The notes under the pieces were generated by a model, which was not told where the DNA came from, made no database searches, and saw only the letters and a program-made list of their open reading frames with translations. Positions 1 to 14,202 of a stretch of DNA of 14,202 bases are shown here, piece by piece. The stretch comes from Candidatus Hermodarchaeota archaeon (GTDB taxonomy: Archaea > Asgardarchaeota > Lokiarchaeia > Sigyniarchaeales > SOKP01). Both the position numbers and the translations under genes were made by a program. Numbering within the stretch: position 1 is the stretch's first letter; every line of letters begins with the position of its first letter. The DNA lies in assembly GCA_048885925.1 (NCBI GenBank), contig JBHLLG010000070.1, forward strand, positions 1 to 14,202. Reading direction: 5' to 3'.

Positions 1-563
1 CAATAATTTATAAGGGAAAAGAAGATTTAGTACTGAAAAAAGCAAAAGAAGTATATGAAATTTTGAAAGATAAATATTCGGTTAAAATTGATTATTCAGA
101 TGAATCTGTTGGAAATAAATTTTATTTTTGGGAATTAAAGGGTGTGCCTATTAGAATTGAAGTTGGACCAAAAGAGATTGAGAACCACAAAATAAAAATT
201 GTAAAAAGACATGATGGTAAAAACTTTGAGATAAAAGAAGAACTTTTAGAAAAAAAAATTGATGAAATTTCCCAAAATTATACGAAAGAAATCAAAAAAA
301 AATCATTAATCGATTTTGAATCTCAAATTGAGTGTGTTTATGAAAAAGATGCGGCAATTGAAGCAATTAATAATGGAAAAATTGTGTGCTGTGGCTTTTG
401 TTCAATTGATATGGACGCTTATCGATGTGCAGAAGTGGTTGAAAAAGAAATTGGAGGTTTTGTTCGTGGAAAAAGAGTTGAAGAGGAAAAGCATGAATTC
501 GCAACTTGTTTAATATGTGGTAAACCTGCTGGATGTACGGTATATATAGCAAAAAGTTATTAG
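1..563 (+). CDS. proS: Prolyl-tRNA synthetase, archaeal/eukaryote type (5'-truncated by window edge; anticodon-binding and C-terminal Zn domains)
   Basis: Frame is open from position 3 (IIYKGKEDLVLKKAKEVYEILKDKY...), so the TTG at 63 is not the start. Motifs GNKFYFWELKGVPIRIEVGPKE, C-terminal CLICGKPA and terminal YIAKSY are typical of archaeal ProRS. Confidence 0.96.
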   Translation, partial: IIYKGKEDLVLKKAKEVYEILKDKYSVKIDYSDESVGNKFYFWELKGVPIRIEVGPKEIENHKIKIVKRHDGKNFEIKEELLEKKIDEISQNYTKEIKKKSLIDFESQIECVYEKDAAIEAINNGKIVCCGFCSIDMDAYRCAEVVEKEIGGFVRGKRVEEEKHEFATCLICGKPAGCTVYIAKSY

Positions 564-663
564 TTCATAATAAGATAAATATATATTTTTATTTGGATTT
601 TTTTAAGAATTAAAAAAATAAATATTTTAACATATAATTCATATAATTTAGCTGTGATAAATT

Positions 664-840
664 ATGGCAGCAAAAGATAAAGTTTTAGAGGTATTTAAAA
701 GTACAAGCAAACCTTTACGCCCTGGTGAAATAGCTGAACAAACAGGTATCGAATCCAAAGATGTTTCTAAAATAATAAAAGAATTACGTGAAGAAGGGAA
801 AGTTTTTTCACCTAAACGTTGTTATTATGCCTTAAAATAA
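664..840 (+). CDS. Small (58 aa) stand-alone winged helix-turn-helix protein
   Basis: Manual translation, not in ORF track: MAAKDKVLEVFKSTSKPLRPGEIAEQTGIESKDVSKIIKELREEGKVFSPKRCYYALK*. Clear wHTH pattern (EIAEQTGI...VSKIIKEL..EGKV) with an SPKRCYY wing. Confidence 0.88.
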   Translation: MAAKDKVLEVFKSTSKPLRPGEIAEQTGIESKDVSKIIKELREEGKVFSPKRCYYALK

Positions 841-962
841 CCCTAGATAGCAGTAATTTGTTTAATTTTAAATATACTCTCTAATTAATTAGTTGATTAT
901 TTAGGTTTAATACTTTCATAGCTATTTAAATAATATAGGAAAAAAATAAAAATATAGAACCT

Positions 963-1127
963 TCAATGAATGTAATGAACTGATGGAGACTTTTGTTTAT
1001 GTTCTTTTATAAATTTGGATTCATTACTCATAAATCCGCAATTTAAACATTTTACAGTTTTTGGGGGTAAATAATTCATAACTTTTGGTATTTTCATTGA
1101 AGTGCAATTAGGACAATAATAATACAT
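963..1127 (-). CDS. Small (54 aa) zinc-ribbon protein with two CxxC motifs
   Basis: Manual translation, not in ORF track: MYYYCPNCTSMKIPKVMNYLPPKTVKCLNCGFMSNESKFIKEHKQKSPSVHYIH*. AGGAG Shine-Dalgarno at 1140-1136, 8 nt before the ATG. Confidence 0.8.
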   Translation of the reverse strand: MYYYCPNCTSMKIPKVMNYLPPKTVKCLNCGFMSNESKFIKEHKQKSPSVHYIH

Positions 1128-1374
1128 TTTTAATACTCCTTCGAGATAAATTATTATTATCTTAACATTTTATTTTCAAGTGTAATTAAAAAGTACCCTT
1201 ATTTTATTAGAAAATAAAAGTATTAGCTTTTATTCTTGTTTGAGTAATTTTGTATTAAAACGACCGTATTTTATTAATTGAACTTTAAGTTTTTAAGTTT
1301 TTGATAAGAACAATTCCAAAAATTTAAGATTTTTAAAGCTTTAATTTTCTCATATCATAAAAAGGAAGTTAGGA

Positions 1375-2277
1375 ATGAATAATATTTTAAAGTCTATTTC
1401 AGATGAGTTTAATAAAATTTATTATATAGAAGGAGCTAGAGAAGGAAAATACCCCTATTCAAATTCTTTACTTATTGAAAATTATTTGATTGATACTGGT
1501 ATTTCTAGTGCAATTTTAAGAAAGCTTAAAAGAGGTCGTCAGATAAATTATGTTTTATTATCTCATTGGCATGAAGATCATACTTCAGGAAATAGATTAT
1601 TACCTAATGTTAAATTTTCTATTCATTTAAAAGACAAATATTTGATAGAGAACGTTGATAAATTCAATGAGTATTATGGGACGTTGAATTCTCCTGCAGA
1701 AAAAGAATTTGAATGGCTTATGGAGAGTTTGAAATTAATAAATATAAAAATTGATAAAACGATAGAAGATAATGAAGTTATTAATGTTGGAAATGATTAT
1801 AATATAAAAGTAATTCATACTCCCGGGCATACAGCAGGTCATTGCGCTTTTTTAGAATTAAATTCTCAAATAGCGTTTTTAGCAGATATAGATTTAACTA
1901 ATTTTGTCTTTTATGCGGGTATTGACTCAAATTTAACCGATTTTGAAGAATCAATAGAAAAAATGCTGAAATTTAATATTAAATTTGCTGTTACAGGGCA
2001 TAGAGGAATAATTGAAGGTGAAAAAAAAATAAAAGAAGAGCTTATTAAATATAAATCTATAATCTTTAAACGAGATGAACGAATTTTATCCCATTTTTCT
2101 GAAACTAATCCAATTAGAATAATTGATTTTAAAAATAAAAATCTTATTTATAAATATTATAGTCAATTTAAGGAATATGAGTTAATTGCTGAAATGATTA
2201 TGATCCAAAAACATTTTGATAAATTTATTAAAAATGGTCTAATAGAACAAAAAGGAAATGGTTATATCTTAAGATAG
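1375..2277 (+). CDS. MBL-fold metallo-hydrolase with probable C-terminal winged-helix-like domain
   Basis: LIDTG, SHWHEDH (HxHxDH), HTPGHTAGH, FLADID and VTGH motifs; purine-rich AGGA upstream of the ATG. Confidence 0.9.
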   Translation: MNNILKSISDEFNKIYYIEGAREGKYPYSNSLLIENYLIDTGISSAILRKLKRGRQINYVLLSHWHEDHTSGNRLLPNVKFSIHLKDKYLIENVDKFNEYYGTLNSPAEKEFEWLMESLKLINIKIDKTIEDNEVINVGNDYNIKVIHTPGHTAGHCAFLELNSQIAFLADIDLTNFVFYAGIDSNLTDFEESIEKMLKFNIKFAVTGHRGIIEGEKKIKEELIKYKSIIFKRDERILSHFSETNPIRIIDFKNKNLIYKYYSQFKEYELIAEMIMIQKHFDKFIKNGLIEQKGNGYILR

Positions 2278-2280
2278 AAT

Positions 2281-3579
2281 ATGGAAAGAATTGAACCACT
2301 TTTATTCAAAATATATCCCCATTTGAAGAAAAAAGTACCCTGGATATCTTTAATTACTAATTTACCTACTCCTATAGATAGATTATATAAATTAGAAAAA
2401 TATCTTAACTTAGAAAAAGGTCAAATCTATATTAAAAGAGATGACAAGAATCATAAAATTTATGGAGGAAATAAACTAAGAAAGCTTGAGTTTATTTTAG
2501 GAAACACAATTTTAAACAAAAAGAAAAAAGCGATTGTTACTTATGGTGGCATTGGTTCAAATCATGGTTTAGCATGCGCTATTATATGTAAAATGTTAAA
2601 TACTCCTATACAATGTGACCTGTTTCTTTATCATCAACCATTAACTTGGTATGTGCAGCGTTCATTATTGTTAAGTTATTATTTCGGATCAAGGTTACAT
2701 CTTGGGAAAAATGATATTAGCACATTCATTAAAGCTTTATTTTTTTGGATTTTTCATTATAAAAATGATTTTATACTTCCAGGAGGAAGCCTTATATTTG
2801 GAAGAGGAACCCCTTTAGGAATGTTGGGATTTATTGATGCAATTCTTGAATTAAATGAACAAATTAAAGAGAGAGTGATCCCTGAACCCGATGTGATCTA
2901 TTTAGCATGTGGTACTACTGGAACCGCTGCAGGATTAGTGGTGGGATGTAAATTATTAGGATTAAAAACAAAAGTCCATGCTGTAGCTGTGTATAAGGAT
3001 TTTCTAGCTAACGCTTCTAATTTAGCCAGAAATGCAAATAAAGCAATTAAATATTTACGGAAAAGAGATAAGAGTTTTCCAAAAATTAAAATTACCAAGA
3101 ATAATTTTGAATTAATAAAAGGTTATCTAGGGTCTGGATATGGTGCTAAAACAATGAAGGGGCAAAATGCAGTTGATATAGTATTTGATTTAGAAGGAAA
3201 GGAAAAAGGATTTATCCTAGACACAACTTATACCGGAAAAGCAATGGCTGGAATGTTCGATTTTCTTAAAAAGGATGAAAATAAGGATAAAATTGTATTA
3301 TTCTGGAACACATATAATTCAAATAATTTAGATAACTATATCAAGGAGACTAAGTTTGATTATAAGAAATTACCAAGAAAATTTCATAAATTTTTTGAAA
3401 CCACTGATTTTCAATGTTGGCGAATCGCAGATTGTCCAAAAGGGATAAGAGAAAACTGCGTTGCTTATTTAAATTCTGAATATAGATATTGGAAAATTAC
3501 TAAATGCAAACTTGATAATAAAAAACAAAAAGAAATTTTTGAAAAATTAGAAAAGGTAATAACATTAGAAGATACTTAA
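2281..3579 (+). CDS. PLP-dependent D-cysteine desulfhydrase / ACC deaminase family enzyme with Cys/Trp-containing C-terminal extension
   Basis: PTP, IKRDD, GGNKLRKLEF (PLP Lys), GSNH, ACGTTGTAAGL and LDTTYTGKA (Thr where true ACC deaminases have YEGK). Starts 3 nt after the MBL gene. Confidence 0.88.
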   Translation: MERIEPLLFKIYPHLKKKVPWISLITNLPTPIDRLYKLEKYLNLEKGQIYIKRDDKNHKIYGGNKLRKLEFILGNTILNKKKKAIVTYGGIGSNHGLACAIICKMLNTPIQCDLFLYHQPLTWYVQRSLLLSYYFGSRLHLGKNDISTFIKALFFWIFHYKNDFILPGGSLIFGRGTPLGMLGFIDAILELNEQIKERVIPEPDVIYLACGTTGTAAGLVVGCKLLGLKTKVHAVAVYKDFLANASNLARNANKAIKYLRKRDKSFPKIKITKNNFELIKGYLGSGYGAKTMKGQNAVDIVFDLEGKEKGFILDTTYTGKAMAGMFDFLKKDENKDKIVLFWNTYNSNNLDNYIKETKFDYKKLPRKFHKFFETTDFQCWRIADCPKGIRENCVAYLNSEYRYWKITKCKLDNKKQKEIFEKLEKVITLEDT

Positions 3580-3602
3580 TTAATTAATTCCAAAATTTTA
3601 AA

Positions 3603-4592
3603 TTATATAATTTTCAGTCGCTGAAATAATCCAGTTATCAAAAAAGGCAAAGCAATTGTTGCATCACACCATACACTTACATGTTTTGATTCTAATGAGT
3701 ATTTCCCCCATGATCTTGCTTCTGAAAATGTACTCCCTGAAAGACCTCCATCATATTCCATTGCAGTATGAATACGAACTGAATAATTATATCCCATATT
3801 CGTTATTTTATCAAACTGGTCTAACATTGGAAAAATCTGTTGAGCCCAATTTCGTGGAACGCCACCACCTATTATTATAGTACCATATTCTTTATAACCT
3901 CTTACAATATCCCCAAATTTCTTAACATCTCCCAATACATCAAATTGAAAATCATAATCCTCATAAAAAGTATATTTTATAAGCTTCAATGCCAATTCTG
4001 AATCAGAGAAAGCTGGTACAAACAAGGGAATATCATTTTTAGCTGCTACTGATAATATACAATCTGATGATAATTTGCTTCCTATTCTTTTTAAAAATTC
4101 TGAAGGAGTTATATGAATTTTTTTATCTTCAAATGATGATTGAATAATTCTTAATAATTCTTTATCTGCTTTTATATAATTATCCTCTGGAAGGAAAACA
4201 TCATATATTCTATTTATTCTATATTTAAATAAATCATTATCATCTACATTATGACTTCCTAAGTAATGACCTACATTACTAGCAGCATCTACTAAATCAT
4301 GTGTTATATTTGCCCCTGTACTGATTAAAACATCAATTAATTTATATTCCATGAGCACTGAAATTAATTTACCCATTCCAGCAGGAACCATCGCACCACT
4401 CAATGTTAAAACGGTTAAACAGTTTTTATTAGAAACCATTTTTTCCAAAATATCAAGAGCTAAGCCGAGATTTCTACCTTGGAATCCACATTCTTTGAGG
4501 GATTTTAAAATTTCATCTACATTTTTTGCCTTTTTAACATCGAAAGGGTGAACTTTTTTTATTAAATAATCTTCTTTTTGATGAGTTTTCAT
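3603..4592 (-). CDS. dhs: Deoxyhypusine synthase family protein (DHS or DHS-like homospermidine synthase)
   Basis: GFQGRNL, SGAMVPAGM, ISTGANITHD, INRIYDV, GGGVP, DGGLSGSTFSEARSWGK (catalytic Lys), DATIALP. Confidence 0.93.
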   Translation of the reverse strand: MKTHQKEDYLIKKVHPFDVKKAKNVDEILKSLKECGFQGRNLGLALDILEKMVSNKNCLTVLTLSGAMVPAGMGKLISVLMEYKLIDVLISTGANITHDLVDAASNVGHYLGSHNVDDNDLFKYRINRIYDVFLPEDNYIKADKELLRIIQSSFEDKKIHITPSEFLKRIGSKLSSDCILSVAAKNDIPLFVPAFSDSELALKLIKYTFYEDYDFQFDVLGDVKKFGDIVRGYKEYGTIIIGGGVPRNWAQQIFPMLDQFDKITNMGYNYSVRIHTAMEYDGGLSGSTFSEARSWGKYSLESKHVSVWCDATIALPFLITGLFQRLKII

Positions 4593-4923
4593 AAGTAAAA
4601 TTAAATTATTTAAACATTTTAAATTGATCTATTTCACTTTTTTTAGAGAGTCTTAAAAATGGATTACTTTAACATGATAAGAGTCACAAATTATATACAT
4701 TTAATATAAATCTTCTTATAATTTCTTAAACAATTAAGTTGAACAATTAGTTTTATTCCTCTTTATAATAAAAGGAAAACAAAGGCATAGAATAATAAAT
4801 TAGGTAAAATTATGGCAATATAATCATCAAAAATATTATTATATCATTAATATTTCAAATAAATTTAAATAAAAGCTATTATATTAAATTCTTAATCAAA
4901 TAATATCAAAGATTTATGAATAA

Positions 4924-5475
4924 ATGACATCTTCGGTCCCAGAGAAAGTATTCTTTGTTAAGGGTAAGGGTTTTCATAAATCTAAGCTGGCAGCCTTTGA
5001 AGAAGCCCTTAGAGACGCTGGAATTGAAAAGTACAATTTGGTAAATGTTTCCTCTATTTTACCACCTTATTGTATTGAAGTTAATAAAGAAGAAGGCTTG
5101 AATGAATTAGTTCCGGGTCAAGTTGTTTTTGCAGTTATAGCAAAAGCCAACTCTAATGAATATAATCGATTAATTTGTTCCTCTATTGGTGTTGCTAAAC
5201 CAGCTGACAAGGGACAATATGGATATTTGAGTGAACATCATTCTTTTGGCATAAAGCCCGAAAATGTTGGTGAATTTGCAGAAGATTTAGCAGCAGAAAT
5301 GTTAGCTACTACTCTTGGTATTCCTTTTGACCCAGATGCTAATTATGATGAAAAAAAGGAAGTATTTAAAATGGGTGGAAAAATTGTTGAAACCAAAAAT
5401 GTCACTTCATATGCCACAGTAAGAGAAGAGAATGAATGGGCTGCTGTAGTGGCAGCAGCTATTTTTATCTTATAA
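4924..5475 (+). CDS. pdaD: Pyruvoyl-dependent arginine decarboxylase
   Basis: AFEEALRDAGIEKYNLVNVSSILPP with the Ser-Ser autocleavage site, GYLSEHH, AEDLAAEMLATTLG, C-terminal W-AAVVAAA. Confidence 0.94.
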   Translation: MTSSVPEKVFFVKGKGFHKSKLAAFEEALRDAGIEKYNLVNVSSILPPYCIEVNKEEGLNELVPGQVVFAVIAKANSNEYNRLICSSIGVAKPADKGQYGYLSEHHSFGIKPENVGEFAEDLAAEMLATTLGIPFDPDANYDEKKEVFKMGGKIVETKNVTSYATVREENEWAAVVAAAIFIL

Positions 5476-7060
5476 TTTTTTTAAAATAATTTATATTAAT
5501 ATCTTGAAAACAAGAATCTATTGATTCGATTTCTTCTAACTCTCTAACAGCTAGCCGATTTAGATCATTAAAATCCTTAGCTGCCCATATTAACTTATTA
5601 AATCTCTGGTGATGATGATGAAATCGTTGATTGGCATAATTTTTAGCTTGTTTAGTGTAAAGAAGAAATGGCCAATCACTACCCTCCATTAATAATAATT
5701 CTCGAGCCGTCTGTTGAAGGATCCTTTCTTCACTTTCAATAGGATTTGGATTTGATTTTAATACAGTTTCGAATTCTTTCATTGATCCATTAATATAGGG
5801 CCAAATCCATCCGTGTTCTGGATTTTTCCAAACTCTAAAATCACCACCTTCTCCCCAACTACTTTCTTTCATTCTAATTAAAGAAAAATTATCTTTATAT
5901 TGAGATATAAAATCAGAAATTTTTATCATTTGAATTAGAGATTGTTGATTAATTATTTCAAAAATAATTTTTAACCAATTTACACCTTCCATCCACCAAT
6001 GACCGTACAATTCAAAATCATAAGGAGAAATAATAATTCCCTTTGTTTTGAATCGTTCTGAAAATTGATCTAATTCTTCAGAAACTATTGAAACAAAGTG
6101 ATTAGCATGGGAACTAATTATTTCTTTTGCTTTTTCAACATCATATAATTCTTTTTCACTTTTTCCAAATTCTTTGCTGGTAATTCTCCAATAATGCAAA
6201 CCTGATTCATGATCTTTTTTATGAAATTCTCTGTAATATTCATTTCCGGGGTATCCTATCGTTGAATCCCAGACTTGTCTACTGGTTCTTTTATTTCTAC
6301 CAAATACTGAAATCCCTGTTTCTAACCTATATCCAAAATTTGTATTTAATCCAATATTGTTCTTTTGTTCAATCAATTCTGCATCTAAAATTCCATGAGA
6401 ATCTACAATAAAGTATTTTATACCTGAATTATTTAACCAATAATCAAGAGGTTCTCTAACTTTGCCATCTTTAAATTCTTTAGGCCTATAAGCACATTCA
6501 GGAAGCCAAATACCTTTAGGTAAACTGTGAAAATATCTTTTATGGGTGTCAATAGCAACCTGAATTTGAGAATGTATTCCAGAATCACTCTCCATTAGAG
6601 GTAGGAAACCATGTGTTGCTGCACACGTTATAATTTCTATCATTCCTTCATTTTGAAGCCATCTAAAACTACCAAGAATATCTCTATAAAAATAATGATA
6701 AAATGTTTCTAGTACATGCTCAAAATTTTTTAAATGGAACTCTGCAATTTTTTTTCTTTGAGGATGATTTTCGAACTTTTTAATATCCTTTTTTGATCGT
6801 GAAATCCATTCTTCCATATATTCCGTAAACTTTTGTTTCATATATTCATCTGCTAATTGTTCAGCTAATATTGGTGTAATATTTATAGTAATAGCAGTTT
6901 TTAATCCATTTTCTTTTAATTCTCTTAAAACGTTGAGAATGGGAATATATGTCTCGCTCATAGCTTCCATGAGCCATTCCTCACCTGCAGGCCAAGTTCC
7001 CGACTTTTTACACCATGGAATATGTCCATGTAGAACCAAACCAAAATATCCTATAACCAT
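5465..7060 (-). CDS. GH57 1,4-alpha-glucan branching enzyme (DUF1957-type C-terminus)
   Basis: LHGHIP, ETYIP, ATHGFLPL, GIWLPECAY (nucleophile Glu), YREFH, PYDFELYGHWW (acid/base Asp), SSWGEGG, ARELLL..SDWPF. Overlaps pdaD 3' end by 11 bp (convergent). Confidence 0.93.
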   Translation of the reverse strand: MVIGYFGLVLHGHIPWCKKSGTWPAGEEWLMEAMSETYIPILNVLRELKENGLKTAITINITPILAEQLADEYMKQKFTEYMEEWISRSKKDIKKFENHPQRKKIAEFHLKNFEHVLETFYHYFYRDILGSFRWLQNEGMIEIITCAATHGFLPLMESDSGIHSQIQVAIDTHKRYFHSLPKGIWLPECAYRPKEFKDGKVREPLDYWLNNSGIKYFIVDSHGILDAELIEQKNNIGLNTNFGYRLETGISVFGRNKRTSRQVWDSTIGYPGNEYYREFHKKDHESGLHYWRITSKEFGKSEKELYDVEKAKEIISSHANHFVSIVSEELDQFSERFKTKGIIISPYDFELYGHWWMEGVNWLKIIFEIINQQSLIQMIKISDFISQYKDNFSLIRMKESSWGEGGDFRVWKNPEHGWIWPYINGSMKEFETVLKSNPNPIESEERILQQTARELLLMEGSDWPFLLYTKQAKNYANQRFHHHHQRFNKLIWAAKDFNDLNRLAVRELEEIESIDSCFQDININYFKKIIR

Positions 7061-7137
7061 TTCTAAAAAAAATAATGTTTTATTTATTAATTAGTCTTAT
7101 ATGATTATATTATTCTAATTAAGTATTGATATTTAAT

Positions 7138-8304
7138 ATGAGTATGAAGCTAAAAGCCATTAAAAGTCCACCAAATCGCGATGAATTATCTAATCGTCTT
7201 AAAAAAGTAAGATTATTAATGAGAGAACAAAATTTGGATTATTATGTATCATTTAACCCAATAAATATCTATTATTTAACCAATTTTGCTTTTTATCTTC
7301 ACGAACGTCCTTTCATACTTATAATAGAAAAAGAAGAGCTACCAAAAATGTTGATCCCTCAATTAGAAAAGGGTCATTTTGAATCTCGAGCTAAAATAGA
7401 GCTTGATTTTGTTATTTATTATGAATTTCCAGCCCGAAGTGGTGAAAATTGGTATGATAAATATAAAAAACTTATTAAATCAAATTCTAATGTAGGAATA
7501 GAATCAGAAATGCCAATTGGAATTGCTAACAAAACTCCTGGCAACAAAATAGTAAGTGATATTATCGATGAAATCCGGATTAGTAAGAGTGACTATGAAA
7601 TTGGGAGAATATATCATGCATGCAGAATAGTAAATAAAGGACATAAAATTTTGTTAAAAAAATGTCGTCCAAAAGTCCTTGAGTTTGCTTTATATAAAGA
7701 AGTTACCGATGCTATGACATCTAAAATAGTACAAGATATCCCTAATGCTAATTTCAGAGCTATACAGACTACAGGAGTTGTTTGGCCGCCATCTATTTCA
7801 CATGATCCTCACCTCATACCACACATTTTTGCTGAAATGGAAGAGGGTGGACCACACGTTTCGATAGTATCTGCTCAAGTAGACGGTTATGGAGTAGAAC
7901 TAGAAAGAACATTTTTTCTAGGGTATGTACCAGAGAAAGCAGTAAAACCTTTTGAAGTAATGTTTGGAGCCAGAGAGCTAGCATATAATATGTTAAAACC
8001 AAACACAATTATGAGTGAAATAGATAAAAAGGTAAGAAACTATATAATTGAAAAGGGATATGAGGAATATATTATACATCGTACTGGACATGGTCTTGGT
8101 ATTACTGGACATGAAGCTCCATTTTTAGCAGAAGGGTATGATAAACCATTAGAAAAAAATATGGTCATAAGTGTCGAGCCAGGTATTTACATTCCCGGGA
8201 TAGGTGGATTTCGTCATTCTGATACAGTTTTAATAACAGATAGGGGATATCAAAAGTTAACTAAAGCACCTGAAACACTTGAAGAAGTTACTATTTCGTT
8301 GTAA
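7138..8304 (+). CDS. M24 (creatinase/prolidase) family hydrolase, creatinase-like, lacking canonical metal ligands
   Basis: Creatinase/prolidase N-domain (NIYYLTNF...ERP) and pita-bread domain (HRTGHGLG..GHEAPF, SVEPGIY, GGFRHSDTVLIT). ATG at 7138 or 7144 preferred over TTG at 7126. Confidence 0.88.
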   Translation: MSMKLKAIKSPPNRDELSNRLKKVRLLMREQNLDYYVSFNPINIYYLTNFAFYLHERPFILIIEKEELPKMLIPQLEKGHFESRAKIELDFVIYYEFPARSGENWYDKYKKLIKSNSNVGIESEMPIGIANKTPGNKIVSDIIDEIRISKSDYEIGRIYHACRIVNKGHKILLKKCRPKVLEFALYKEVTDAMTSKIVQDIPNANFRAIQTTGVVWPPSISHDPHLIPHIFAEMEEGGPHVSIVSAQVDGYGVELERTFFLGYVPEKAVKPFEVMFGARELAYNMLKPNTIMSEIDKKVRNYIIEKGYEEYIIHRTGHGLGITGHEAPFLAEGYDKPLEKNMVISVEPGIYIPGIGGFRHSDTVLITDRGYQKLTKAPETLEEVTISL

Positions 8305-8313
8305 TTACATGAA

Positions 8314-8817
8314 TCAAAATGTTTTTACTATTTCATTTAAAGGTTTTCTTGGTTTAGGTTCTGGAATTGTTCCTTTAATATAACCAAATGGTAAAACTGT
8401 AAGAAGATAATCATTTTCTCCTAATTGTAGAATTAATTTTACTTTTTCTCTGTTCATAGCTCCAATCCAGCAAGTTCCAATTCCTAAAGACCAAGCCATT
8501 AAGATCATACTCATTGAAACTAAGGATGTATCAATCAAATGCCATTTAGGACTAGTTTTAGTTTTAGCAACAATTGCAATTGCAATTGGAGCTTCTTTAA
8601 TGAATTTACCATAAAATGCATTTCTTGAGATATTCTCTAAAATTTTTTTATTTCTAATAACAATAAATTCCCATGGTTGTCGGTGCGAAGCACTAGGAGT
8701 CCATCTTCCTGCCTCTAAGATCATTTCAATTTCTTTTTCTGATATCGATTTATCTTGAAAAGTTCTAATACTTCTTCTTTCTTTAAGAAAATTCAAAAAG
8801 TCTTCTGGATCTATCAT
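8314..8817 (-). CDS. Nitroreductase family protein (FMN-binding)
   Basis: RRSIRTF, AGRWTPSASHRQPWEFIVI, AWSLGIGTCWIG, FGY, PRKPL. Confidence 0.93.
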   Translation of the reverse strand: MIDPEDFLNFLKERRSIRTFQDKSISEKEIEMILEAGRWTPSASHRQPWEFIVIRNKKILENISRNAFYGKFIKEAPIAIAIVAKTKTSPKWHLIDTSLVSMSMILMAWSLGIGTCWIGAMNREKVKLILQLGENDYLLTVLPFGYIKGTIPEPKPRKPLNEIVKTF

Positions 8818-9082
8818 TTCTTATCAACTTTAATAATCATTCATATAGCTTTATAATTGAAAAATTTAAAAACTTACTATATTTTGGATATTACATAAAT
8901 ACTTTTTTTTAAATTAAAAAACCATCAATGAATAAAAAATTATGAGGGTTCTACATAAAAAGATTTCTTTTATTATAATTTTAACAATTACCTTAATTTC
9001 TACTACATATATTGAATTAAAACGAAAAAGAATAATCAATACCTAAATGAAAATTTAATTTTATTTATCTTAATATTTTATT

Positions 9083-10339
9083 TTATTCCGCTTGATTGAA
9101 GTAATCTGCTTCAAGATTCGGAAAAATTTTCTTCTTTCTTCCGTCTTTTTTAAATTTAATGAGTCCCAATTCATTCAATTTATCTAAATGATATTGTATT
9201 GTCTTGTGATCCACTTTATATTTTTTAGTAATCAAGTTATTCCATATACCGGGATTTTTTTCAATTATTTCTAAAATCTCTAAAGTTAATTTACTTTTTT
9301 GTAACTTTAAATCTATGTTAGATACTGGATTTTTTTGATAATATGGAAAGTAAGCAATAAAATTACCTATTCGTTTTTTTCCAATAACTTTGTAGGTTAG
9401 TAAAATATCAAGATGCCAAACTAAATTACCTGCTGCTAACCCTGTTTTACGTAGTAGCTCATTAAAGTGTATTCCTGGCTCATTCAAGATTAAATCAATT
9501 ATTTTATTCCTATTCTCATTTTCTAAAACCTCATCTAAGCTTAAACGGTGTGCTCCTTTCTCAATTGGCACAGTTCTTTTTCTTAAGTATTGGAAGTAAT
9601 CCTTTTTGGAAATTAAAATTACTAGAGCAACGATTGCAATTGCAATTACAGTGATTGTAACAATTAACCATGTCCAATCTTCTTGAATAACCTGGATTTC
9701 AAAAATTGTGATATAATAATCTGTGTCTGGCTGAATACTAGTAAGTGTACTTTCTAAATGTTCTTCAGTGGTAGTTTCATTGAATCTTACAGTAGTATCA
9801 ATTAATTGCCATTCTTCTTCATTAGATTTCAATATGCCGATAGAATATGAACGTTCTGGATCTAATCCAAATTGCTCATTTTCTTTAAATCTTATAGTCA
9901 ATTCTTCGATTGATGTATTTGAATTTATCCTAAAAATACACTCATATCTATATTTTAGACTATAATTACTTTTTTGTGGCTGTCTTGGAGATTGTGATAC
10001 ACCAAAATTCTGTAAATTTGATTTTGTCGAAATATTCAATGAAAGGGGTTCACTATTGCTGAGGATAAAAAGAGTCTGACGGTATGTAATTGTATTTTCA
10101 TATTCAATAAAAAGATCAATTGGAGTGTCAGTAGCAATTTCAAATGTAATATTATTTAAAAAGTTATAAGAGACTCTTTCATTTGTGTTAACTTTATCTT
10201 GAGTTGAAAATCCAGGAATAGTTTCTTTTCTCGCATTAATATTACCGAATAATAAATTGATCTCAAGGAAAATTATTAATAGAAATAGAACTACAATGTA
10301 CTTATAATTTTTACTATTGGTTATGTTAATATTCTTCAA
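9083..10339 (-). CDS. Membrane-anchored transcriptional regulator: signal/TM, ~185-aa beta-rich ectodomain, TM, tandem winged-helix domains
   Basis: N-terminal hydrophobic YIVVLFLLIIFLEINLLFG; TM WTWLIVTITVIAIAIVALVILIS followed by KK; wHTH1 RNKIIDLILNEPGIHFNELLRKTGLAAGNLVWHLDIL; wHTH2 ILEIIEKNPGIWNNLI...TIQYHLDKLNELGLI...GRKKKIF. AAGGA precedes the TTG start. Confidence 0.85.
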   Translation of the reverse strand: MKNINITNSKNYKYIVVLFLLIIFLEINLLFGNINARKETIPGFSTQDKVNTNERVSYNFLNNITFEIATDTPIDLFIEYENTITYRQTLFILSNSEPLSLNISTKSNLQNFGVSQSPRQPQKSNYSLKYRYECIFRINSNTSIEELTIRFKENEQFGLDPERSYSIGILKSNEEEWQLIDTTVRFNETTTEEHLESTLTSIQPDTDYYITIFEIQVIQEDWTWLIVTITVIAIAIVALVILISKKDYFQYLRKRTVPIEKGAHRLSLDEVLENENRNKIIDLILNEPGIHFNELLRKTGLAAGNLVWHLDILLTYKVIGKKRIGNFIAYFPYYQKNPVSNIDLKLQKSKLTLEILEIIEKNPGIWNNLITKKYKVDHKTIQYHLDKLNELGLIKFKKDGRKKKIFPNLEADYFNQAE

Positions 10340-10367
10340 CTAATTTCCTTCAAATATACTTAATTAT

Positions 10368-10375
10368 TATATAAA
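10368..10375 (-). promoter_or_regulatory. Candidate archaeal TATA box (TTTATATA) for the membrane wHTH gene
   Basis: TTTATATA on the minus strand, ending 28 nt upstream of the TTG at 10339. Weak evidence in AT-rich DNA. Confidence 0.3.
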
Positions 10376-10379
10376 TATT

Positions 10380-10391
10380 AAAAAAAAAAAA
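10380..10391 (-). terminator. Oligo-T (T12) archaeal-type terminator candidate
   Basis: A12 run on the + strand (T12 on minus), 13 nt after the stop of the 235-aa gene. Confidence 0.45.
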
Positions 10392-10404
10392 TTTTTGAAT
10401 ACAT

Positions 10405-11112
10405 TTACTTTCTTTTCTTAAGATATATTACTAATACAACAGCTACAACTACAGATCCAATAAAAACTGCTTCAATACCTACAAAACCCCAGATTGCATC
10501 ATCAGTTTCAGGTATAAGTATTGTCCAAGTGGAGAAGTGGTTAGTCTCGCAAATTAAATATCCATTCTGTTCCATTGTTGTAACCGCTTCCCATTGTTCT
10601 GCTGTTTCATTATAAAAAGCCCACGTTCCCTCACGATTTCTATTATTCGCTTGGATTTTAAGTTGTGCATGAATTTGATTTTGAATTGATGCATTAGTCT
10701 GAATTCTAATACAAAATCCTTCTTGATATAGTAAATTGCGATTTCGATTTCTTACTGTATATCTATTTCCTAGTAATAATCCTAATTCTTCTTGTTCTTC
10801 TGTACAAGTCATATTCATTTGGAGATCATATTGCGCTTCTATCTCAATTTCAAAATGCTTATCTCCGATTTTTGGAGCTTCACTACAATTTATATATCCT
10901 TGAATAGATATATTTGTTTGTACCGTTAATCTTGTCTGTAATTGAAATCGCCACGTTAAGCTATAATTAGCTTGCACCTGATATTGATATAATTCGGTAC
11001 TATTAACAGGAATAGGCGTTTCTGGAGTAGCTAATACTGTATTTATGTTAATCACTGTGAATAACATAGCGAAAGTAAATATGCCTATTAAAATTTTATT
11101 TATTTTATTCAT
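10405..11112 (-). CDS. Single-pass cell-surface protein with juxtamembrane HFS (GPS/GAIN-like autoproteolysis) motif
   Basis: Signal peptide (KILIGIFTFAMLFTVININTVLA), beta-rich ectodomain with 7 N-x-S/T sequons, WAFYNETAEQW...CETNHFSTWTIL, C-terminal TM and KKRK tail. AGGTG Shine-Dalgarno upstream. Confidence 0.82.
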   Translation of the reverse strand: MNKINKILIGIFTFAMLFTVININTVLATPETPIPVNSTELYQYQVQANYSLTWRFQLQTRLTVQTNISIQGYINCSEAPKIGDKHFEIEIEAQYDLQMNMTCTEEQEELGLLLGNRYTVRNRNRNLLYQEGFCIRIQTNASIQNQIHAQLKIQANNRNREGTWAFYNETAEQWEAVTTMEQNGYLICETNHFSTWTILIPETDDAIWGFVGIEAVFIGSVVVAVVLVIYLKKRK

Positions 11113-11324
11113 TCTTTTTTAACACCTAAATTGGTCTAAGTTAATAAACGTGGGTGATATAAAAAGGATTGAGGAATAAATATTCCCAATTAATTTGACA
11201 TACAATTATGGAAGTTCAACTCTGTAAAAAATAGTCGTATTACAAAAAATTTTGAAATTTACTCACTTTAAAATCAGTTTTGGTATTAGTAATTCCCTCC
11301 TAGCTTAACTTTTAATATAATGAT

Positions 11325-11368
11325 TTTGAAAATATTATTAAAGATTTTCAAATTAAAATATTTATATG
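11325..11368 (+). promoter_or_regulatory. 9-bp inverted repeat (TTTGAAAAT-N10-ATTTTCAAA) next to a candidate TATA box (TTTATATG) of the 751-aa gene
   Basis: Arms at 11325-11333 and 11344-11352; TTTATA at 11361; GGAGA Shine-Dalgarno at 11422-11426 before the ATG at 11434. Confidence 0.3.
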
Positions 11369-11433
11369 AAATTCATCTTAAATTTATTTTAAGATAGAAG
11401 ATCAAATTTTATGTTATTTATGGAGATAAATTT

Positions 11434-13689
11434 ATGTCATTAAAAGATTTTACTAAAGAAATATTCACTCGATATGGGTTCACGGAAGAACATATCAATA
11501 TCTATTTAGTATATTTAAGAATCCCCCGTGCGACAACATCTGAAGTTTATATGACTTTAGTTGATGAAAATGAATCTCTACAATATGAGACTGTGATAGA
11601 AATAACGAATTGGCTAGTAGAGAAAGGATTCCTTAAAAGAGTTGAGGGTATTATAGATAGATATATTCCACTTCAACCATATTTTGAATTGTTTATTAAT
11701 GAATCAGAAAATTTTAGGAATGAAATTGCAAAAATTAAAGATAAAATTTTAGCAGATCAATCTGATCGGTTCGAGAAACTTGAAGCAATTCAAGATAAAA
11801 GTATCGGTGAAGTTGAAAAAGCAGTTGATACCCAAATTAAAGTTTTCTTTGAAGATTCTGATTCAAAAAATACAACTAAAAAAAATCGAATTGATAACGC
11901 TACTAAACGTTTCACTGAAACTTCTAAGACTTTAGAAAGTAATCTTCATTCTATTATGGACAATTTGAATTCAAAATTAAAAAGTATATCAGAAGCAATT
12001 GTCAATAAAAATGAAAGTGAAGTTGCTAAATTTAGAGATAACCTCACAGAGATAATCTCAAAATTATTGGAAGATTTTTCTACTAGGGTCGATAATTTAG
12101 AAAAAGAGCTGAAAATGGAATTGGATGAACATGTTGAAAGGCATAAAAGCACAGCAAACCAACTTAAACCAAAGATGGAGCAAATTTTAGAGAAATACTT
12201 GGAACGTATGGATAAGGTTATTGCTGATTTGAAAGCAAAAATTTCTAATCTATTAAAAGAACATATAATTCACGTTAAGAATACTACTGATACACTCCAG
12301 ACAAATTTGAAAGCCAGTGTTGATGAGAGGCACAGAATTTTAACAGATCAAACAAATAACTTTAAAAGTATGACACTTACTTTAATCGATAATTTACTTG
12401 AACATGCAAATAGGTTTACTGATTTTTCTGAAGATATGGCTAAAAAAGGATTCTTCTGGATGGGAAAAAAGAAAAAATACAAAGCTAGGCATCAAACGAC
12501 TATTGAAAATGTATTAAAATATTCTGAGCCAATGAAACCTGATTTTATTAAAACATGTGATGATTATATTGTAAATACCCGAAAAACAACCGATCAGATA
12601 AAAACTGATGTTACAGATATAATGGTTAAAGAAAATGAAGGCATAGAAACTGAAACTACAGATCTTGACTATAAAGCTCAAGAAACAGTAGATGCACAGT
12701 TACAAAACCTCGCAACGGATTTAGCTGGAGAAGTTGATGATACATTACAAACAGGTGTAAAAGATTGTTCTGATACAAGAATTAAACTAAAAGATTCCTT
12801 AGAAAACTCATTTAAGACGCATCATCGCCAATATGATGACGCTTTAAATACTCATAAAGAGAATTCTTTAAAGCATTATACTGGTTTTGATACTGAAATT
12901 AAAAGAACAAGTGCCGATTGGACTCGAGATGTTGATACTAATTTTGCGAATGGTAAAAGAGAAAGTTCAGAAAAAATTGATGGTGAGATTAGATTATGGG
13001 ATGCTGAAGCAAAAGATATGAATAATAATTTATCAGATATGCTTGCAGATCACAAATCCAAATATCAGCAAAACGCAAAAACACTACAAAGTAGTCTATC
13101 AAATACTACAAGAGATACAATTCAAAATGTTAAAGATGCAATCGCGGATTTCACATTACAATTCATGAACTCTATTGATGATGGTACAGAACTTGCTGAA
13201 AGTAATGAAAGTAAACTAGGTGACATTCATAATGCTTCTAGCGCAATTCCTGAAATATCTAAAGTTACGACTTGGCCAATAGTTGGAAAAGATGCTTTAG
13301 TTGCTGCTGTGAAGGATGCTGTATATCGCACAAAATCTTCAATTATTATTGTAACTCCATATGTTGTGCCTGAAATCTTACAAATTGTATCTGAATACGC
13401 ATTTCAGAAAAAAGCAGCGAGATTTATGCTTACATCGTTTTGGGATTTAAATCAGTATGGAGGAATAATAAATAAGATGAAACAACTTGGAAATATCCAG
13501 TTTCGCCAATTACAAACAGCTGGAGAGTTTTTCGCAGTTACACGAGATGCTGAAGAAGTTATTCTGGCACCTGCTACTGAAAAGGAGGCAGAAATGATTG
13601 CTGTGGTTTCAGATCAAGAGGGTTATGCAAAACTATATTCTCAGTTTATCGGGCCCATATTCCAAGCGCAGAGCCGTCCAATTCAATGA
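11434..13689 (+). CDS. TrmB-like protein: N-terminal wHTH, ~520-aa hendecad coiled coil, C-terminal TrmB effector/PLD-like fold
   Basis: aa 1-82 resemble TrmB wHTH (YGFTEEHINIYLVYL...ATTSEV...LVEKGFL...RYIPLQP). aa 83-605 are helical with 11-residue periodicity. aa ~612-751 resemble the TrmB C-domain (WPIVGKD...TKSSIIIVTPY...AVTRDAEEVILAP), with no HKD motif. Confidence 0.8.
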   Translation: MSLKDFTKEIFTRYGFTEEHINIYLVYLRIPRATTSEVYMTLVDENESLQYETVIEITNWLVEKGFLKRVEGIIDRYIPLQPYFELFINESENFRNEIAKIKDKILADQSDRFEKLEAIQDKSIGEVEKAVDTQIKVFFEDSDSKNTTKKNRIDNATKRFTETSKTLESNLHSIMDNLNSKLKSISEAIVNKNESEVAKFRDNLTEIISKLLEDFSTRVDNLEKELKMELDEHVERHKSTANQLKPKMEQILEKYLERMDKVIADLKAKISNLLKEHIIHVKNTTDTLQTNLKASVDERHRILTDQTNNFKSMTLTLIDNLLEHANRFTDFSEDMAKKGFFWMGKKKKYKARHQTTIENVLKYSEPMKPDFIKTCDDYIVNTRKTTDQIKTDVTDIMVKENEGIETETTDLDYKAQETVDAQLQNLATDLAGEVDDTLQTGVKDCSDTRIKLKDSLENSFKTHHRQYDDALNTHKENSLKHYTGFDTEIKRTSADWTRDVDTNFANGKRESSEKIDGEIRLWDAEAKDMNNNLSDMLADHKSKYQQNAKTLQSSLSNTTRDTIQNVKDAIADFTLQFMNSIDDGTELAESNESKLGDIHNASSAIPEISKVTTWPIVGKDALVAAVKDAVYRTKSSIIIVTPYVVPEILQIVSEYAFQKKAARFMLTSFWDLNQYGGIINKMKQLGNIQFRQLQTAGEFFAVTRDAEEVILAPATEKEAEMIAVVSDQEGYAKLYSQFIGPIFQAQSRPIQ

Positions 13690-14046
13690 TTTTGAGAGAT
13701 TGGAACAATTAAATACCGAAACTGGTAGAATAGTTTAAAGTAAATAATAAATTTTTTTATATATATTCTTTTTTAATATCATCTAGACATATATTAACTT
13801 GAATTCTTTCTGAGTAAATTTCAAATATTTTTATTATGTTAAACCACTGAACTTAAATCCTGGTTTACGGTTAATTATGTTTTTTCTAAAATCATCCAAA
13901 AAAAACTTTCTCTGTTCAATACGATCTTTAGACCATCCTTGTCGCTTGTCAAACCTTAGAGGGGCAAATATGCACAATTAAAGGAACACAATATATAATC
14001 AAGTTCTTCGAAGATAGATCCCTATATTTTCTTCAGGTTTATTCTT

Positions 14047-14202
14047 CTATAATAAAAGAAAACCACATATTTCGCAATTTTTCTTATCACCACTATTGAT
14101 ATTATTACAAATGGGGCAAATATTGACTGTTACAATCTCGTCTTTTCGAATACTTTCTGAATTACTCTTTTTTGACTCAATTATAGTTCTAACTTCTGTA
14201 AC
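14047..14202 (-). CDS. 3' end of a gene ending in a zinc ribbon (RanBP2-like spacing); 5' part outside window
   Basis: Manual translation: ...VTEVRTIIESKKSNSESIRKDEIVTVNICPICNNINSGDKKNCEICGFLLL* (C-x2-C-x3-N-x6-C-x2-C). Confidence 0.75.
   Translation of the reverse strand, partial: VTEVRTIIESKKSNSESIRKDEIVTVNICPICNNINSGDKKNCEICGFLLL

Follow-up and report, generated by a model that had tools for sequence, protein, structure and literature searches.

We analysed a window of 14,202 nucleotides from an Asgard archaeal genome (Candidatus Hermodarchaeota archaeon, GTDB order Sigyniarchaeales within the Lokiarchaeia; assembly GCA_048885925.1, contig JBHLLG010000070.1, positions 1 to 14,202 of the forward strand), and in particular a gene at 11434..13689 on the plus strand that encodes a long, mostly helical protein with TrmB-type end domains, referred to here as the rod protein. 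The reading frame (751 residues and a stop codon, taken from the list of open reading frames and its translation) starts with ATG, carries GGAG 9–12 nt 5′ of this codon and encodes an N-terminal MSLK that is kept among orthologues, so that the frame assigned by an earlier model-made reading of the letters (the first-pass annotation) proved to be real. Exactly the same length, 751 residues, was found for 117 of the 120 closest database proteins listed (70–93% identity), and the nearest relatives are therefore essentially free of indels. Near-identical entries in NCBI are annotated as hypothetical proteins and assigned to Promethearchaeota, Lokiarchaeota and other Asgard archaea, and a literature search outside supplementary tables found no paper describing the rod protein.

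The protein begins with a winged helix-turn-helix of TrmB/MarR type (residues 1–82; 11434..11679), assigned from an AlphaFold2 (AF2) model and from structural comparisons (VIA). This is followed by an N-arm of unbroken hendecad helix (residues 83–335; 11680..12438), a hairpin tip (residues 336–345; 12439..12468) lying inside the motif AKKGFFWMGKKKKYK and a C-arm that returns as a hendecad helix (residues 346–603; 12469..13242), the arms being defined by the AF2 model and their periodicity and the tip by the AF2 loop and its conservation. The last part is a TrmB-type domain of phospholipase D (PLD) fold without HKD (residues 612–751; 13267..13686), assigned by VIA and Foldseek; all of these features lie on the plus strand. 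It is well supported that the rod protein consists of a head of TrmBL2 type and a hendecad rod of ~38 nm that folds back on itself, lacks an ATPase and ends in a conserved tip.

Fold-back arrangement of the rod

The AF2 model, built from a 51-row alignment (mean predicted local distance difference test, pLDDT, 76.8; predicted template modelling score, pTM, 0.37), is a hairpin with helices at residues 83–335, 346–422 and 426–603 and its turn in the loop 336–345. The monomer is thus predicted as a hairpin and not as an unbroken rod, and the ~520 helical residues that had been read between the two end domains are present. The arms comprise 253 and 258 residues, or ~38 nm at 0.15 nm per residue, close to the two arms of ~260 residues and ~39 nm expected by the first-pass annotation. 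The main helix break had been ascribed to G339, G344, P366 and P369; both glycines do lie in the AF2 loop, whereas the two prolines leave the model helix intact. The pLDDT profile is itself mirrored, with minima at residues 241–270 and 411–430. In the VIA comparisons, residues 239..439 of the model were superposed on the helix hairpin of the Maxi antifreeze protein (4ke2_A; 190 of 196 residues, root mean square deviation (rmsd) 4.3, Z 9.4) and residues 160..517 on a helical bundle (4tql_B; 162 residues, rmsd 3.1). Z values below ~13, that of the Maxi match among them, are common for long helices, and such matches were used for the topology of the model and not for homology. Winged-helix chains and two-lobed PLD chains span ranges such as 3..605 or 33..751 of the model, bringing the N-domain alongside both the C-domain and the end of the C-arm.

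The same arrangement is seen in how the rod changes length among orthologues. Arm residues were counted between the anchors P82, G339, G344 and F573 in 27 orthologue rows of 751–1050 residues, drawn from other genera and families of the same order and from a representative library at 50% identity; the rows are not independent, several being close kin or one protein obtained from two sources. The change in the N-arm equalled the change in the C-arm in 27/27 rows (exactly in 23, off by one residue in 4), with increments of 0, +11(12), +40(41), +44, +51, +62, +84, +95, +106 and +150, nine of them distinct and non-zero. Asymmetric arm changes had been named beforehand as the outcome that would speak against a fold-back, and the survey returned equal ones throughout. 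When the anchors were located by regular expression, the N-minus-C difference was constant (27, or 23 with a +4 tip) in the 14 rows with all three anchors, the other 13 having been left out for want of an anchor match. The indel sites are mirrored as well in a 14-sequence alignment, with position 166 paired with 502/512, 183–193 with 485–495 and 291–301 with 384–394. Furthermore, in a paralogue group of 999–1140 residues all six longer members carry a single insertion of 85–114 residues at position 470, where the midpoint of the rod is at ~476.

All increments are 0 or 7 modulo 11 (11 and 44 versus 40, 51, 62, 84, 95, 106 and 150). Since every one of them equals n × 11 or n × 11 + 7, the coiled-coil register is preserved, and the insertions consist of whole hendecads with or without one heptad, always in both arms. 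Pairing of the arms, with residue i facing ~677 to 689 minus i, the turn at residues 336–345 and the head at the other end, is strongly supported by these data. The data likewise strongly support a lineage-specific rod length, from 253 to ~403 residues per arm (~38 to 60 nm), that changes only in steps keeping the arms equal and in register (n × 11 or n × 11 + 7). The antiparallel fold-back that reunites both TrmB-type domains as a head, as put forward by the first-pass annotation, is upheld by the mirrored rows, the AF2 hairpin and the VIA ranges.

Two further approaches gave less. Correlating the hydrophobicity of the N-arm with that of the reversed C-arm produced many equal peaks, with parallel offsets scoring as high, and did not set the register. 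A crude scan of 46 family members for a break of Gly, Pro and aromatic residues at the midpoint was uninformative for most long paralogues; in the four paralogues of ~755 residues, Gly/Pro, aromatic and basic residues were found at most 13 residues from the midpoint in every case.

Periodicity and conservation of the rod

The hydrophobic period was 3.66 in the N-arm (power 329.6 against a maximum of 122.2 in 200 shuffles) and 3.68 in the C-arm (197.1 against 101.0, likewise in 200 shuffles), with heptad-type power at 3.5 reaching merely 3.9 and 14.0 in the two arms. A period of 3.65–3.68, that is 11/3, was recovered in both rod halves of 10/10 proteins tested (the rod protein and nine other orthologues). 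This period explains why residues 170–322 give a sub-threshold match to the Pfam family Apolipoprotein A1/A4/E (32.9 bits, under the cut-off of 90) and why the tails of ZorA proteins match. PADLOC ZorA models matched residues 96–435 of the rod sequence (P0001) with E values down to 6.6e-10, in the long tail region only, which suggests that the Zorya tail has the unusual periodicity of the rod.

The rod is net acidic and contains 3 Pro in 521 residues. Residues 167–335 hold ~3.5 hydrophobic residues per 11, a wide seam that would fit a four-helix bundle formed by a dimer of hairpins. Between the rod protein and its counterpart in another species of the genus, identity is 83–88% in the rod segments, 100% in the tip and 84–85% in the two end domains; neighbouring housekeeping genes show 77–86%, similar to the rod segments. 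Purifying selection thus appears to act along the whole rod. No transmembrane segment was found in the rod protein. Walker A (G....GK[ST], by regular expression) is absent and no ATPase family was matched in Pfam or NCBIfam, in agreement with the ATPase-free reading of the first pass; NCBIfam returned nothing above its cut-offs for the rod protein, and a whole-protein search of PDB sequences gave nothing significant (best E 0.19, apolipoprotein A-IV).

The tip is a conserved aromatic and polybasic loop (GFFWMGKKKKYK) with a net charge of +6 over residues 336–348. G339 is present in 26/27 orthologue rows and G344 in 21/27, and an insertion of +4 is tolerated at the tip, for which the consensus in other families is RGSA[FW]KAL[FL]xGKHK[KE][FWY]. 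By interfacial hydrophobicity, the tip is the highest-scoring 7-mer of the rod in 19/27 rows; in the remaining 8 the top 7-mer lies elsewhere, mostly in a conserved FTLxFMN core motif near the head. A combination of exposed aromatic residues and an adjoining polybasic stretch typifies peripheral membrane anchors; for the tip, a dimerisation or DNA contact is equally conceivable.

The two end domains

In the AF2 model the winged helix (residues 8–79) consists of helices at 18–29, 35–43 and 51–63 and strands at 67–70 and 76–79. VIA placed the N-domain with the winged helices of Fur, MecI, MarR and TFIIE-alpha at Z 9–11 (for example Fur 2fu4_B, Z 11.2, rmsd 1.9 over 75 residues), so that the fold read from the sequence is borne out. 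At the level of families, the rod protein itself stays below the Pfam cut-offs, with TrmB (PF01978) at 14.1 bits (E 0.045, cut-off 25.6) and Penicillinase_R at 20.4 bits (cut-off 22.6). Among seven long-rod relatives scanned, five reach at least 25.6 bits for Pfam TrmB (P0149 44.6, P0164 30.5, P0160 28.1, P0208 26.2 and P0165 25.6), while P0146 scores 23.1 and P0123 has no match. Most of these distant paralogues of the same architecture thus pass the cut-off, and the domain layout given by the first-pass annotation holds. A profile from 11 orthologues gave MgrA (E 0.019) and TrmB 3qph (E 0.13, in register, residues 9–82 on 9–82) among PDB entries. In the orthologue of a GC-richer genome (L015 / L028, G032:C1), a repetitive GFWLRLWL-like stretch stands in place of the first half of the winged helix; this odd N-terminus may reflect an error of frame or assembly, or else a genuine replacement.

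The C-terminal alpha/beta domain, at residues 613–749 of the AF2 model, is structurally close to TrmB. Residues 612–751 superposed on 2f5t_X (TrmB residues 110–242) with Z 18.5 and rmsd 1.8 Å over 131 residues, and on 3qph_A (TrmB, from residue 108) with Z 17.6 and rmsd 2.2 Å over 133 residues. The match to TrmBL2 (5bpd_A) had Z 15.4 and rmsd 14.1 Å over 202 residues, and NucT, FAM83B and Nuc matched at Z 14–15 with rmsd ~3.1 Å over 137–138 residues (NucT Z 15.2), within a wider set of PLD-fold matches at Z 12–15 that includes Nuc, NucT, FAM83 and Zucchini. These Z and rmsd values place the domain nearer to TrmB than to generic PLD proteins and sustain its description as PLD-like. Foldseek ranked TrmBL2 5bpd_C (3.7e-8), TrmB 2f5t_X (7.1e-8) and 3qph_A (5e-7) at the top of its PDB matches, followed by PLD-fold proteins, and atlas structures annotated with PF11495, the Pfam family whose first part covers the PLD-like domain, gave TM values of 0.76–0.80 to the C-domain, which serve as a lead only. 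Residues 40–264 of 5bpd_A aligned by VIA to residues 532..750 of the model, the C-arm entering the C-domain as the TrmBL2 helix does. The catalytic PLD motif HxK(x)4D (H.K....D, by regular expression) is absent from the entire rod protein. The second, sugar-binding effector subdomain of TrmB is also absent, since the match stops at TrmB residue 242, where the rod protein ends. Together with the lack of adjacent sugar genes, this fits the earlier proposal that the protein is not a sugar regulator. N687, R691, S747 and P749 are invariant in the alignment of the C-domain (A4).

Among relatives in the representative library the PLD-like C-domain also occurs as a stand-alone protein (~140–230 residues, without a Pfam family), fused to TPR repeats and, in one case, fused to HHH and a zinc ribbon (P0172, P0181, P0189, P0204, P0147; P0142, P0145, P0154 and others). 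Its occurrence alone and in fusions marks it as a mobile module.

Distribution and paralogues

Of 40 genomes of relatives, 35 have a match to the rod protein; within the genus, the figure is 20 of 23 other genomes. In a phylum-wide sample 188 of 300 genomes matched at E ≤1e-10. Strong orthologues (E <1e-100) lie within the same order, in 62/67 genomes of the same family (f1) and 6/7 of another (f2), with one exception (G309); matches elsewhere in the phylum are weak (E 1e-11 to 1e-39). The rod gene is therefore conserved, apparently in single copy, through most of a Lokiarchaeia-type order. The representative library contained 195 relatives at E ≤1e-3, among them stand-alone C-domains, TPR fusions and rods of 700 to ~1800 residues. 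In a listing of 20 sequencing runs from 7 studies, the gene occurred in DNA contigs throughout and no RNA run was among them.

The same genome encodes classic TrmB-like proteins of 281–334 residues and two mid-size rod paralogues, L035 (G000:C29, 702–2624, plus strand; 640 residues) and L037 (G000:C83, 1006–3195, plus strand; 729 residues). In both, a TrmB-like helix-turn-helix is succeeded by a stretch predicted to be helical and then by a segment that resembles the beginning of the C-domain, and the C-terminus is extended by a Pro-rich region. L035 matches Pfam TrmB at 31.4 bits and L037 has no family match; the C-domain is matched by L037 only, and weakly (E 0.0095). The two look like shorter-rod paralogues in the same cell.

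Upstream region and neighbouring genes

The 340 nt 5′ of the rod gene were compared across 10 loci of the genus. A block of ~80 bp (11304..11383, plus strand) and the GGAG at 11422–11425 are nearly invariant, while the remaining spacer has diverged. The block is a probable promoter that lies in the spacer of a divergent promoter; it contains the repeat pair GATTTTGAAAAT / GATTTTCAAATT and, ~70 nt ahead of the ATG, a TATA-like TTTATAT. It may be an operator for autoregulation.

The divergently oriented frame on the other side of this spacer (10405–11112, minus strand, 235 residues) has no Pfam or PADLOC family; it stands beside the rod gene within the genus (52–62% identity in two genomes) and not in other families. 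A 418-residue protein (9083–10339, minus strand) likewise accompanies the rod gene within the genus, and carries an HVO_0163-type helix-turn-helix and HTH_24 at its C-terminal end, with weak PADLOC matches to Csa3- and CARF-associated winged helices (E 9e-11). On the 3′ side, a partial frame (14047–14202, minus strand) that runs past the end of the window has a CPIC...CEIC zinc-ribbon-like motif. The AT-rich window (GC 0.23–0.34) also holds housekeeping genes for deoxyhypusine synthase, pyruvoyl arginine decarboxylase, a GH57 branching enzyme, an M24 peptidase and a nitroreductase. No sugar or sugar-transport gene is adjacent to the rod gene. Outside the genus, its neighbours are unrelated housekeeping genes (an aIF5B-like GTPase, PAP2, PHO4, PfkB, Fae-Hps and MFS).

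Comparison with known proteins

The closest counterpart is TrmBL2 (TK0471 / PF0496), a chromatin protein of the Thermococcales with structures 5bpd, 5bpi, 5bqt and 5box. Like TrmBL2, the rod protein combines a winged helix, an amphipathic helix and a PLD-like C-domain without the sugar-binding subdomain; the amphipathic helix follows directly on the winged helix (from residue 83) and leads into the C-domain, and the order of domains agrees with that given for TrmB and TrmBL2 in PMC4877046. Unlike TrmBL2, with its 264 residues and one short dimerisation helix, it has a fold-back rod of ~520 residues, a helix ~15 times longer, its C-domain has no detectable sequence similarity and its winged helix is acidic. 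The best structural match of the C-domain is TrmB (2f5t, 3qph), from which the rod protein differs in lacking the second effector subdomain, where Table 1 of PMC4158304 places the sugar contacts G320 and E326, and neighbours for sugar transport. The first-pass annotation had put TrmB-family proteins at ~260–340 residues; the same table gives 264–360, and 139 for MreA. 'TrmBL' proteins are also counted in the supplementary proteome tables of an Asgard chromatin preprint (10.64898/2026.07.02.735847).

In SMC, Rad50 and MukB a long fold-back coiled coil likewise unites the two terminal parts of the chain as a head, and in SMC proteins the arms stay matched in length. An antiparallel coiled coil with matched arms was found for the rod protein in 27/27 rows and in the AF2 model, a pattern that fits intramolecular or intermolecular pairing. 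In contrast to these proteins, it has no ABC ATPase head, no hinge and no zinc hook, the last because its cysteines occur only at 375 and 445; its repeat is hendecad and not mainly heptad, and its arm measures ~38 nm. The 11/3 period is shared with the 11-mers of apolipoproteins A-I, A-IV and E, although the score of 32.9 bits against 90 leaves the protein outside that Pfam family. Resemblance to the Maxi hairpin (4ke2) is within what is common for long helices. Scy and FilP, likewise hendecad-rich coiled-coil proteins, have 51-residue repeats, and 51 is among the length steps of the rod. The protein does not belong to ZorA, as it has no MotA/ExbB channel domain and no transmembrane segment, and there is no ZorB-like neighbour in the window.

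A proposed tether and its alternatives

On balance we lean towards a rod protein that acts as a two-ended structural tether or spacer with its head on DNA, and not as a metabolite-sensing regulator. The short connecting and dimerising helix of TrmB/TrmBL2 would have been expanded into an antiparallel hendecad coiled-coil hairpin of ~38 nm. The TrmBL2-like head would bind DNA or else a partner protein, probably, as in TrmBL2, in dimeric or higher oligomeric form, which would make the rod a four-helix bundle. At the far end, the exposed aromatic and polybasic tip would bind a second surface, for which an anionic membrane is the leading candidate, with a further DNA duplex or another tip as other options. 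The aromatic and polybasic tip, which the first-pass annotation did not mention, is the sole hint of membrane contact.

Several observations weigh against this picture. The DNA- and membrane-binding roles are predictions from sequence and model, and no conserved neighbour gene points to a function, synteny being confined to the genus. The entire protein except the tip is acidic; the winged helix has 9 Lys and Arg against 13 Asp and Glu (net charge −4), its recognition helix YETVIEITNWLVE (residues 51–63) has no Lys or Arg in the genus, and a Tyr that is important in TrmB is substituted in four orthologues of another family. The acidic winged helix and the lack of basic residues in its recognition helix are the main doubt about a DNA-bound head. 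The C-domain has no sequence-level tie to TrmB: there was no Pfam match and no relevant PDB match with a 22-sequence profile, and when that profile was compared by hhalign with two of the genome's own classic TrmB-like proteins, neither alignment reached significance (E 0.063 and 0.53). As for the fold itself, the pTM of the model is low (0.37) and its tip loop has a pLDDT of only 42–46. Folding residues 1–335 and 346–751 as separate chains gave 'weak support' (score 0.42, best of three controls 0.00; contact agreement at least 66% and partner pLDDT at least 72 in these runs); this mark was attained by 58 of 80 solved complexes, against 2 of 110 mismatched pairs, and at scores ≤0.60 by just 7 of the 80 solved complexes, plus both passing mismatches. 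Covariation along i + j ~680–690 was modest, with 2.0–2.5-fold enrichment among the top 200–1000 pairs. It was computed from 137 gap-free sequences (effective number of sequences 64.5), gapped rows having been removed because mutual information with gaps as a state is confounded by the mirrored deletions. As a control in parallel register gave 1.2–2.05-fold enrichment, covariation contributes little. Finally, arm changes of equal size are as compatible with an antiparallel dimer of two chains as with a hairpin within one chain.

Such a dimer, in which each of two extended chains lays its N-arm against the C-arm of its partner, would be a rod of ~76 nm with a head at each end and could serve as a filament or cytoskeletal building block. 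It likewise requires equal arm changes, it recalls the TrmB dimer, described in PMC4158304 as domain-swapped around its coiled-coil helix, and the hydrophobic content of residues 167–335 suggests more than two helices in contact. We nevertheless regard it as quite unlikely, since the nearly invariant G339, the tolerance of +4 at the midpoint and the predicted loop there favour an intramolecular hairpin, although a monomer prediction cannot decide between the arrangements; the Gly/Pro, aromatic and basic residues near the midpoint of all four ~755-residue paralogues point the same way. An ordinary TrmB-family transcription factor, for instance an autoregulator, is an unlikely explanation too, if one to be taken seriously. 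In that case the rod would be an oversized dimerisation or oligomerisation device or a sensor, with neither tether nor membrane contact. The TrmB/TrmBL2 domain order of the head and the conserved repeat-bearing block just upstream of the gene's own promoter would be accounted for, as would Y51-E52, which matches the Tyr-Asp/Glu DNA-contact positions tabulated for TrmB family members in Table 1 of PMC4158304. A rod of ~38 to 60 nm, kept in register at high cost and conserved like the domains, is harder to explain in this way, and so is the conserved hydrophobic and basic tip, for which a transcription factor offers no role; the effector subdomain is missing and the recognition helix has no basic residues.

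The exact 11/3 period, the Pfam match and the aromatic and basic tip would also be expected of an amphipathic 11-mer rod of apolipoprotein or perilipin type that opens flat on lipid and coats or shapes membranes, and two paralogues score far higher for Apolipoprotein A1/A4/E (P0208 at 115 bits, above the cut-off of 90, and P0165 at 88.6). That the rod protein works in this manner is improbable: its own match is far under the cut-off, the rod is net acidic, its helices are continuous without proline punctuation, and the mirrored indels demand arm-to-arm pairing. A machine related to SMC/Rad50 or to the Zorya defence system can be given hardly any credence. The antiparallel arms recall the former, and cohesin 7ogt_A was aligned over residues 84..605 of the model with Z 11.0 but an rmsd of 98, while Walker A, any ATPase family match and a zinc hook are lacking. 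For Zorya, the PADLOC ZorA models match residues 96–313 at E 6.6e-10, but only with their helical tail (model positions ~180–700) and not with the MotA/ExbB channel domain, and there are no ZorB-like or defence neighbours. A defence reading was rejected, as it had only these tail-region matches.

Implications

Members of the TrmB family are known as small regulators or chromatin proteins of ~260–340 residues; here the family's domains are carried by an SMC-like fold-back arm without a motor, built on a rare, uninterrupted hendecad repeat. The rod is a clean natural case of arm-length co-variation outside the SMC family, its length having changed many times and equally in both arms. Were its ends to bind DNA on one side and membrane on the other, or two separate DNA segments, the protein would represent a novel type of nucleoid organiser in archaea, and it belongs to the lineage that bears most closely on how eukaryotic cell architecture arose. 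Cultured relatives exist, which makes the rod protein directly testable.

More speculatively, and as something of a long shot, the rod protein could be a fixed-length 'molecular ruler' in which DNA-gripping TrmBL2-like heads, rods of 38–60 nm and membrane-inserting aromatic and polybasic tips hold the nucleoid at a lineage-specific distance from the membrane. The paralogues with other rod lengths (640 to ~1800 residues) would, if this were true, form a family of rulers of different sizes, and the nearest prokaryotic kin of eukaryotes would possess an ATPase-free spacer comparable to the lamina or to LINC.

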